NCBI RefSeq assembly: GCF_030013595.1
Contig: NZ_CP122768.1
Origin: Escherichia coli
GTDB lineage: Bacteria; Pseudomonadota; Gammaproteobacteria; Enterobacterales; Enterobacteriaceae
DNA: 64,000 bases
Direction: 5' to 3' (one strand)
Shown here piece after piece: positions 43,601 through 46,600 of the stretch. Every line of letters starts with the position of its first letter. The stretch's first letter is position 1. Made by a program: the position numbers.

Positions 43601-46600
43601 CGCCGAACTGGCGGACGATGCGGCTGCCGTTTCTGAGGCTCCTGCGCGGGTTTCCGACGCTTTCGCATTCGTCTCAGATGTCTTCGCTGCGGAAGCAGAA
43701 CTCGCAGCTGCAGTGGCCTGTTCAGTGGCTTCGCCAGCCTTCGTTGTGGCTGTTGAAGCGGACGATGCAGCGCTTTCTGCCGATTTTCCGGCGGCAGCGG
43801 CACTGGCTACAGCCTCCCCTGCCTTCACTGATGCCTCACGGGCCGATGATGCAGCCGCGGTTTCTGAGCCTGCCGCAGCTGAGGCACTCTGTCCCGCTGC
43901 CGTTTCAGAAGACTTAGCGTTTGTCTCAGACGTCTTTGCCGCCTTCGCGGAATTTCCTGCCGCCGTTGCCGAGGAGGCTGCACTACTGGCACTCGAGGCT
44001 GCGCTCGTTTCTGATGATTTTGCCGCCTCTTTTGAAGCCGACGCATCCCTGGCTGAGGAGGCAGCTTCTGACGCTTTCGTGGTCGCGGTGGATGCAGAGG
44101 TGGCTGCTGATTGTTGTGACGCTGCAGCATTCGTTTCAGACGTTTTCGCGGCACCGGCACTGGTGGCCGCCGCGCTTTTTGAGGACTCTGCAGCGGCAGC
44201 ACTTTTTGAGGCTTCAGTGGCCTTTGTTGATGCCGTTCCTGCGCTGGAAGACGCTGACTGAGCCGACGAAGCGGCCTGTCCGGCTGACGTGCTGGCTGCA
44301 CGTGCTGAATCTGCAGCATCAGTCGCATGGGTTGCCGCCTCACGGGCAGATGTGCTGGCATCACTGGCTGACTTCTTCGCGGCTGCCGTGTTCTGTGCCA
44401 CCACGGACGCGTTACGCGCCACCTCTTCCACCATCAGTTCAAAACGGCGCAGTGCCTCCGGACGGGCATCATCCTCCGTCATGGCACCGAGAAAATCATT
44501 CAGCGTACCGGGTTGAGAATCTTCATACACGGTGATGGTCCCGGCATGCGAAGGCGGAAAACCTTCAACCAGCAGGGTGACACTGTACTGACCGTACTCA
44601 ACGTCCATGCTGTAACGCCCGGCTTCATCCGGATTTTCTGAGGCCAGCGTGTTCACCACCACCGTGGTACTGTTACGTTTTGCTTTCAGCTGGATTGTGC
44701 AGTTCTGTACCGGTTTTCCTGTGCCGTCTTTCAGTACACCTGAAATCTTTACTGCCATATTCACCCCACAAAAAAGCCCGCCTGAACCGGCGGGCTGTCA
44801 TAACACTGTGTTACCTGGCTAATCAGAATTTATAACCGACACCCACGATGAAACCGTCAGTGCGCCAGTCACCACTGCCGGAGCCTTCATAAGCGACATC
44901 AATGGCCACGGATTCGGTCGGGTTAAACTGCACGCCAGCCCCCCACGCCAGAGACGTGTTGCTGTGGCGACCGTCATCACTTCCGGTCAGCACGTCGTGC
45001 GTTTTCCCCTTGTTATCAGTTACGCGGAGATAATCCCCGGAAAAAGTCGACACACGGCTGTAAGCCACACCCGCCATCGCATACGCGCTTAACCATTCAT
45101 TCACGCGCACAGACGGCCCCGCCATCACGCTGAACCAGCGGTTACGCACGGAATCTTCATGCCAGCGGGTATCGCTGTAACGGGTCAGCTGGCGATTCTT
45201 GTCTCCTGCATAGCTGAATGACGTCACCAGCCCCAGTGTGTCCGTAAACTCATAACGGTATTTCACGTTAATCCCGTTCAGATCATCGCTGCCGGGAACG
45301 TTCGTCGAGGTATAAAGATAGCCCGCGCTCAGCGTGGACTGATGTTCAGACGCCCATGCAGGCGCACAGGATGCGGCCAGACAAATGGCTGCGGACAAAA
45401 TGGCGGCATAAAGTTTACGCATAATTACCTCTCGCTTTTCTGCAATAAAAAAGGCACCATTTCTGGTGCCCTTATCTGGGTTATAAATATTTCAACGGAT
45501 ACTGATACCGGAAGCCGCTTTTTTGGTCACTATCACCGTACAGTCTGTGATGTTACCTGCACCCTGATTGCCTTTCTGGAAAATCCTGAACTCCAGGGTG
45601 ACGTTCCCACCACCACTCGGCATATCAATAACCGCGCTGTAACTCCCGGGAACTGCCCCTCTGGTTTCTCTGGATGCGATTAAGACACCGTTTTTGCGAA
45701 CTTCAAAACCATAACCCGTGTACCTTGTACCTCCCGGGTTATTACCGCTCCCCGGATTGTCATACGCCACACCGTTAAAAATAATGGGCGGAATAATGAT
45801 TTGACGGTCAAAGTTATGATCATCGCTGATGGTGACGGTAACCGTCCCGTCGGGTGTTTCCGTGTTCCCCCACGTACCAGCCCTTTTCGGGAATGGTCTG
45901 GATACCGCTTTAACGAAGTCCCCCCTGACCTGGTTCGCCTCCAGCATGCCCTTAATCGTACAGTTCTCATTTACCGTGACGTTGTTGAGCGTTCCGGCGT
46001 TCGCGTTCACGTTACCGCTGATATCCGCATTTCTCGCCGTCAGCCGACCGTCAGGTGTCAGGGAAAATGCCGGTGGATATCCACCGCTGGTAATGGTGGG
46101 AGCCGTCAGATATTTCAGGAACACTTCATTCATGAATATCTGATCACCCTGACCAACAAACATCGGCTTTGTGTTGCCATTTGCAGGATTAATCATCGCA
46201 ATCCTGTCTGCCGCCAGCAGCACCTGACTCTGCATGCCGTCGGGGGTGTTCTCAATACCGGCACCGATACCCGCGATATAAAGGCGTCCGTCCTGCATCT
46301 GCTGCAGCTTCACAGCCCACATGCTGTTCAGGTTATTACTTGTATCAACCTGAACCTGCTGTATCTGCTGAATTGCTGCACTCTGGTCTTCCAGTTTCTT
46401 ATTGACGGTCTGTGTGATTTCATTGCTGACATCCGTAATGGACGTCCTGATTTCAGCCAGGTCAGGCGCAAGCTGACCGTTATCAATCTGCGTCCACAGC
46501 TCCTGAGCCAGATGGGTTTTCCCTATCTCGCCTTTGAAAAAATCCAGGTAACCTTCCGCATCATCGCTCGCCCGACCGACGGCCTCCACGAATGCCGATT

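Follow-up and report, generated by a model that had tools for sequence, protein, structure and literature searches.

lom in a lambda-like Escherichia coli prophage: an optional, terminator-flanked cargo cassette that is most likely transcribed with the late operon

Ail, Rck, PagC and OmpX are linked, at the level of their family, to adhesion and serum resistance. Phage lambda carries a gene for a member of the same protein family, lom (J02459 18965..19585), which lies between J and stf and is the prototype lambda moron. A moron, by the Juhala/Hendrix definition, is extra DNA between genes that are adjacent in related phages, with a promoter and a downstream terminator of its own, a composition unlike that of the flanking genes and expression in the repressed prophage. 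In reviews, the lambda gene counts as a moron that the prophage expresses (PMC3594210, PMC7067206, PMC1151598), and its transcription in lysogens was reported in PMC1151598 and PMC7067206, which implies a promoter somewhere. A lambda microarray study, however, did not detect lom in lysogens (PMC2147009); it remarks that the lom promoter is poorly known, and our literature search returned nothing further on that promoter. PMC3594210, PMC7067206 and PMC1151598 describe adhesion to epithelial (buccal) cells for lambda Lom. In a 2025 study, plasmid-expressed lambda Lom strongly blocked lambda-vir, but not T7, and the authors propose that Lom prevents non-productive adsorption late in infection (PMC12366544); ribosome-profiling data cited in that paper indicate that lambda Lom climbs strongly late in infection.

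Here we analysed a 64,000-nucleotide stretch of E. coli DNA (contig NZ_CP122768.1 of assembly GCF_030013595.1), hereafter the window. A preliminary description had reported an Ail/Lom-family gene between J and stf, with an intrinsic terminator on either side, and had read it as a self-contained, independently transcribed moron that could give the lysogen an adhesion or serum-resistance phenotype. The gene order on the minus strand confirms the position: J is followed by a hairpin and T-tract, lom, a second hairpin and T-tract, stf and tfa. In the list of open reading frames, J (tail tip or host specificity protein, 1165 aa, with a C-terminus of the 434/cdtI type) occupies 48989..45492, lom (199 aa, Ail/Lom-family outer-membrane protein precursor) 45422..44823, stf (side tail fibre) runs from its ATG at 44758 to 42278, and tfa occupies 42278..41694, all on the minus strand; a tRNA gene follows tfa at 41158..41242. 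A Shine-Dalgarno sequence, GAGAGG, can be read at 45433..45428 on the minus strand, 5 nt before the lom ATG, and the phage 434 record has an annotated ribosome-binding site at this position. The 12-nt leader of stf, TGTGGGGTGAAT, abuts the T-tract of the second hairpin and is common to phages without lom. The pig E. coli HCP5S3_I2 carries the 1.1-kb J-lom-stf query with 100% identity. In that locus the counterpart of J is annotated as gpJ, the whole head-tail operon is annotated upstream, and the tRNA gene at the matching position is annotated as tRNA-Ser, with the hya operon after it. Our best explanation, in which we have high confidence as a whole, is that the region is a J-lom-stf segment of the standard type, from a lambda-like E. 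coli prophage that has integrated beside a tRNA-Ser gene, and that lom is an optional 673-bp cargo cassette, with no recognisable promoter, which is transcribed late and lies behind the terminator of J.

The identity of the lom product stands as first described. Residues 1–199 align to positions 1–199, the full length, of the Pfam profile Ail_Lom (PF06316; E 2.7e-118, 393 bits against a cut-off of 23), and homologues with solved structures are lambda Lom (PDB 9wso, E 2.4e-49), OmpX (1qj8, E 2e-18) and Ail (3qra, E 1e-17). By eye, the protein has an N-terminal signal peptide, MRKLYAAILSAAICLAASCAPAWA, which ends in AWA and is followed by SEH, and a C-terminus ...VGYKF with phenylalanine as the final aromatic residue. 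It is thus predicted to be an eight-stranded beta-barrel outer-membrane protein of the Ail/Lom/OmpX type. We also considered gpJ as a partner chain in the 9wso entry of lambda Lom, and set this aside because 9wso is absent from the PDB matches listed for gpJ.

Both terminator-like sites are real, with limits slightly different from those first given (45446..45470 and 44772..44800). The upstream one, tJ, was found by the terminator scan at 45473..45444 on the minus strand. It begins 19 nt past the J stop codon and ends 21 nt ahead of the lom ATG, and consists of the hairpin AAGGGCACCA-GAAA-TGGTGCCTTT (45473..45450), with a 10-bp stem and a GAAA loop, and the T-tract TTTTTTATT, which reaches to 45444 and has eight T among the nine bases after the stem. 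Its predicted minimum free energy is −15.9 kcal/mol (z −3.5), and none of 200 shuffled sequences was equally stable. Among 11 distinct variants of the hairpin, the stem shows two compensatory pairs, G-C to A-U and C-G to U-A; these two pairs, changed on both sides, account for six cells of the alignment, and none of 500 shuffles reached the observed covariation score. Pairing is kept in 91.8% of cells, compared with 34–63% when the partners are slid by 1–3 columns.

The downstream terminator, t-lom, was found by the same scan at 44796..44770 on the minus strand. Its hairpin, AGCCCGCC-GGTTCA-GGCGGGCT (44796..44775), has an 8-bp stem with seven GC pairs and a 6-nt loop and is followed by six T up to 44770; it begins 27 nt past the lom stop codon, and 11 nt separate the terminator from the stf ATG. 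Folded with its flanks, t-lom reaches a z-score of only −2.1. It is conserved across 85 loci, lambda included, where the changes fall in the loop or turn a G-C pair into G-U, and we regard this conservation of the stem as weaker evidence than the covariation in tJ. Between lom and t-lom, the 3' untranslated region also contains a palindrome, TAACAC-A-GTGTTA (44815..44797, minus strand), which was recognised from sequence and fold. This palindrome is largely preserved across the 85 loci: a single base change occurs in three of 19 distinct downstream variants, each represented by one locus, and the lambda copy is identical.

Whether such sites are more frequent than expected depends on how strictly they are defined. 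A loose terminator scan returned two sites in 3 kb, against 2.8 expected from shuffles, and 21 in 20 kb, against 18, and thus detected no enrichment at either scale. Since these counts did not exceed the shuffles, we adopted a strict definition (a stem of at least seven pairs with at least four GC pairs, and at least six T in eight bases), under which the 64-kb window contains 13 sites compared with 1.4 ± 1.2 in block shuffles. Both tJ and t-lom rank among the best of these 13 sites; both are intergenic, and both have what is expected of an intrinsic terminator, namely a GC-rich stem-loop and a T-tract, placed after a stop codon and co-oriented with the operon. No Rfam family matches either hairpin. 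The only hit nearby, a Trp_leader match over t-lom, has 21.7 bits where the gathering score is 41; it is sub-threshold and was taken as chance. The observation that lom is flanked by terminator-like sites is confirmed, and it is non-random.

In close relatives, J is followed directly by stf, so that lom is an optional insert. A query in which the 3' end of J was joined directly to the 5' end of stf led to phages PhiR63_1, PhiR11_1 and Tritos, which have no lom: the J stop codon is followed by 60 nt and then by the stf ATG. Such a junction is present in 261 of 5426 complete E. coli genomes, while the 1.1-kb lom-containing segment was found in 3803 of the 5426, and loci with lom are thus about 15-fold commoner than loci without it. 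The spacer of the lom-less phages reads TGA-AATATTTATAACCCCAATAC-GGGCGCCAGAAATGGCGCC-TTTTTTATT-TGTGGAGTGAGT-ATG(stf). That of the window has the same start and continues ...GGGCACCAGAAATGGTGCC-TTTTTTATT, then GCAGAAAAGCGAGAGGTAATT-ATG(lom), and after lom the sequence is TGA...GCCCGCCGGTTCAGGCGGGC-TTTTT, then TGTGGGGTGAAT-ATG(stf). Comparison of the spacers with and without lom delimits a cassette of 673 bp (45443..44771, minus strand), comprising a 21-nt leader with the Shine-Dalgarno sequence, the lom coding sequence, its 3' untranslated region and t-lom. Because the lom-less relatives retain tJ fused to the stf leader, the borders of the cassette are placed within the T-tracts of the two terminators. 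A further locus, L040, was considered as an independent boundary; it has an insertion of an IS66-family transposase 18 nt before the ATG and is uninformative on the native border. The comparison fits insertion and deletion of lom alike; since lom-bearing loci far outnumber the lom-less ones, the latter may have arisen by secondary deletion and need not represent the ancestral state.

These comparisons also indicate to which gene each terminator belongs. The lom-less phages PhiR63_1, PhiR11_1 and Tritos keep the sequence of tJ and join it straight to the stf leader; since tJ is present with or without lom, we assign it to J and not to a lom unit. In contrast, t-lom lies inside the optional block and is thus a downstream terminator of the cassette itself. 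Neither position is peculiar to cargo genes: similar hairpin-plus-T sites lie at 57298..57281, directly after the major capsid gene, and at 59977..59956, directly after the portal gene, and elements of this kind are therefore not specific to morons. They are a general feature of this late operon, and possibly also act as stabilisers of mRNA 3' ends.

RNA polymerase modified by the Q protein reads through intrinsic terminators, as is well established for lambda. The hairpins could accordingly serve mainly as 3'-end stabilisers or processing barriers that set the amounts of J, lom and stf mRNA within an antiterminated late transcript. Passage of the modified polymerase, the sites behind the major capsid and portal genes and the retention of tJ in phages without lom are all consistent with such a role, but both sites have a complete T-tract, a feature that is superfluous for a stabiliser. 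We consider this main function a real, though minority, possibility, and one that does not exclude termination of unmodified polymerase.

Independent transcription, as the preliminary description had it, calls for a start site upstream of the gene, and neither a consensus scan nor a position weight matrix (PWM) scan found a convincing one. The consensus scan detected no sigma-70 promoter on the minus strand in or beside the cassette, and the 21 nt of insert-specific DNA before the ATG contain only the Shine-Dalgarno sequence. In the PWM scan, the sole site between tJ and lom was TTTATT-17-AATTAT, with a score of 4.8 and a −10 element that overlaps the ATG, while better-scoring sites lie within J, upstream of tJ; a simple sigma-70 matrix of this kind would miss activator-dependent or alternative-sigma promoters. 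The scans thus provide lom with no promoter of its own. Its composition is likewise ordinary, with a GC content of 0.558 that equals those of its neighbours (0.568 in J and 0.560 in stf).

The DNA in which a promoter could lie is further narrowed by the J genes that precede lom. The same Lom allele (94–99% amino acid identity) occurs behind at least four types of J C-terminus, which are mutually only 43–77% identical over their last 150 aa, so that the only constant DNA upstream of lom is a 62-nt spacer consisting mostly of tJ. This also weakens the idea that the Lom allele is paired with a receptor-binding type of J. Within the spacer, we considered TATAAC, in the conserved TTATAACCC after the J stop codon, as a −10 element. 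It lacks the final T, no −35 element is conserved across the J types, any transcript begun there would still contain the GC core of the tJ stem in its entirety, and the motif is also present in phages without lom; it was therefore rejected as a lom promoter.

Only part of the initial reading of lom as a self-contained moron is upheld. It is an optional cargo gene with a downstream terminator of its own, but the upstream terminator is that of J, no promoter is evident and the GC content is ordinary. A moron that is self-contained in every respect, having a promoter of its own, independent transcription in lysogens and insulation by terminators on both sides, would agree with the presence of a terminator on each side, with the optional state of lom between J and stf, and with the reports that lambda lom is transcribed in lysogens (PMC1151598, PMC7067206, PMC3594210). 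Against this, the upstream terminator exists where lom does not, the 21 insert-specific nucleotides before the ATG accommodate no sigma-70-like promoter, the GC content is ordinary, the J-lom spacer shows no homology to that of lambda, and in one study lom went undetected in lysogens (PMC2147009). We consider such a unit improbable, and independent transcription of this lom allele is not supported by the sequence analysis.

One of the sites within J deserves separate mention. The promoter-like TTGATA-16-GAACGT in the 3' end of J has its −35 element at 45628, some 180 nt ahead of lom, and could in principle drive weak lysogenic expression of lom, with tJ as an attenuator that only a small fraction of transcripts would pass. 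An element of the form TTGAYA-16-nAnCGT or TCACAT occurs 137–149 nt before the J stop codon in 55 of about 85 scannable loci, and the lambda counterpart, TTGACA-16-AAACGT, lies at the same distance. The score is 10.7 in phage 434, the maximum, and 7.15 in the window (99.87th percentile), and low or variable expression from such a site would suit the way in which lysogenic lom expression has been described. However, the site coincides with a conserved protein motif of J, V-I-D-M-P, and its conservation consequently needs no promoter function; by chance alone, 500 nt should contain about one site with such a score, and tJ looks strong with its eight T in nine bases. Because of this overlap and its location upstream of a strong terminator, we rate the site only as a lead and consider expression from it unlikely.

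Late transcription of lom thus remains our preferred reading. As tJ belongs to J, no convincing promoter was found and the GC content matches that of the neighbours, the main source of lom mRNA is most likely late transcription antiterminated by Q. Once the prophage is induced, RNA polymerase that starts at the late promoter and is modified by Q would ignore both tJ and t-lom, and lom would be made within the late transcript, along with J and stf. In the repressed prophage, tJ would halt stray unmodified transcription leaving J, while t-lom would keep any transcription of lom out of stf-tfa; the hairpins may in addition act as barriers that stabilise the 3' ends of processed late mRNA. Any expression of lom in the lysogen would then have to come from leak-through of tJ, or from a start site near tJ that is unconventional or very weak.

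The proposal of the 2025 study (PMC12366544) that Lom blocks adsorption fits a promoter-less late gene beside the receptor-binding end of J. A more far-reaching version can be put forward as an unlikely, speculative extension: lom would be no autonomous unit of lysogenic conversion but a late gene without a promoter, whose main task is to prevent unproductive adsorption of progeny phages to debris or infected cells, any trace of lom in lysogens would be leak-through of tJ, and the conserved spacer, TTATAACCC together with tJ, would act as a recombination linker by which receptor-binding modules of J are swapped in front of a single lom-stf module.

A terminator on each side does not by itself make a gene an autonomous unit. 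Because the upstream terminator is that of J, no promoter is visible, the composition is ordinary and the protein shares no more than 47% identity with lambda Lom, claims of adhesion or serum resistance for the lysogen of this prophage need direct expression data. Natural phage pairs with and without lom, such as PhiR29_1 and PhiR63_1, would be convenient material for phenotype tests.

How far the data on lambda apply here depends on the likeness of the two loci. In lambda, too, a hairpin and T-tract follow J, lom has the same position between J and stf, and t-lom and the stf leader are nearly identical to those of the window. However, lambda Lom shares only the above-mentioned 47% protein identity with the window protein and has a different signal peptide, and the 3' end of J, the J terminator and about 85% of lom are non-homologous DNA (about 55% identity), with identity above 80% only in the last approximately 90 nt of lom. 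The lambda J terminator, CGTCCG-GGAA-CGGGCG-TTTTATTAT, is unlike tJ, and the spacer between J and lom is unrelated. As the spacer is unrelated and the proteins have diverged to this extent, findings on lambda lom, the allele behind all experimental data on lysogenic expression, adhesion and the lambda-vir block, are not automatically transferable. The morons of HK97 and HK022 (Juhala et al. 2000; reviewed in PMC3594210) resemble lom of the window in being extra genes with a downstream terminator of their own and a non-essential cargo. Compared with them, lom of the window has no identifiable promoter of its own, its GC content is ordinary and its upstream terminator is that of a neighbour.

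A second class of described systems comprises receptor-blocking genes located beside receptor-binding genes, such as llp next to pb5 in T5, and cor in phi80, N15 and HK022. The likeness to the llp/cor type consists of an outer-membrane protein gene directly after the gene for the receptor-binding tail tip, of late expression, which for lom is the predicted mode, and of the block of lambda-vir, but not T7, by plasmid-expressed lambda Lom (PMC12366544). Unlike the llp/cor type, Lom is a predicted beta-barrel and not a lipoprotein, and the occurrence of one Lom allele behind at least four J C-terminal types argues against a strict pairing between Lom and the receptor-binding domain.

The closest agreement is with the group of phage 434. 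Phages 434, lambda h434, cdtI, mEp460 and Ayreon have approximately 94–96% DNA identity to the window over the 1.1-kb segment, as do many Stx phages (94–96%). In the 434 group, the genes stand in the same order as in the window, and the two hairpins, the spacers and the Shine-Dalgarno sequence agree as well. The differences from phage 434 are point differences, for example TTATAACCCAGATAAGGG in the window in place of TTATAACCCATATAAGGG in 434, and stf is longer in the window (828 aa) than in the 434 group. Both terminators are annotated in the GenBank records of 434, mEp460 and Ayreon (OL657226, JQ182728 and MF807953). The gene lom, its position and both terminators were thus already known, being annotated in phage records and explained in the literature.

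The lom gene, which encodes an Ail/Lom-family outer-membrane protein, forms one module with the side tail fibre gene stf, and this same module is preceded by at least four different types of the C-terminal, receptor-binding part of J among the related loci L008-L087 (compared over the 450 nt that precede the stop codon of J). The switch between J types falls at a conserved spacer consisting of TTATAACCC plus a hairpin, which looks like a recombination linker joining the modules. A separate observation concerns one IMG/VR contig (L040, 54..1500), in which an IS66-family transposase gene takes the place of J and its terminator, ending 18 nt upstream of the lom ATG.

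Downstream of lom, stf (42278..44758, minus strand) encodes 828 aa and has a long, repetitive, Ala/Ser-rich middle part at approximately 43.0-44.4 kb with a GC content above 0.6. The stf annotated in E. coli strain HCP5S3_I2, which has a 100% identical lom region, is just 672 aa long, and the stf repeat region is therefore length-variable. The Rfam family IS009 (RF02111) has a full-length match of 223 bits at 41737..41935 (minus strand), wholly within the coding sequence of the tail fibre assembly gene tfa; this 'sRNA' family may simply represent conserved prophage tfa sequence. Two other Rfam families, the cspA thermoregulator (21916..22338, minus strand) and naRNA4 (CssrE; 11156..11234, plus strand), also have matches that exceed the gathering score; neither match falls in the tail region of the prophage, and they bear no relation to the lom finding. 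Just past tfa, at the prophage end, a tRNA is located within 41158..41278, followed by an 11-bp hairpin (41253..41278) that receives a terminator score on both strands. In a related genome with a 100% identical lom region, the counterpart is annotated as tRNA-Ser and the hya operon comes next. The stretch from the tRNA to the hairpin (41158..41278) is probably the attachment site region.

Strong hairpin-plus-T sites were also detected on the minus strand directly 3' of the major capsid gene (57281..57298) and about 50 nt past the portal stop codon (59956..59977). Terminator-like elements in this Q-antiterminated operon are therefore not confined to the borders of lom.

Lom of phage lambda has a solved structure of 206 aa (chain C of the multi-chain entry PDB 9wso); gpJ was sought among the chains of this entry and is absent. 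Within J, a promoter-like TTGAYA-16-nAnCGT element (45601..45628, minus strand; 156..183 in L007 and approximately 373..400 in L001, both related loci) is positioned 137-149 nt upstream of the J stop codon, where it overlies V-I-D-M-P, a conserved motif of the J protein. Lambda, 434 and the majority of the other J types carry this element, which is a possible, unproven origin of lom transcripts. The lom 3' UTR contains a 13-nt palindrome, TAACAC-A-GTGTTA (44797..44815, minus strand), immediately before the lom terminator. This palindrome, which may form another small hairpin or serve as a binding site for a protein, is mostly constant across 85 related loci, three of which carry single base changes, and the lambda copy is identical to that found here.
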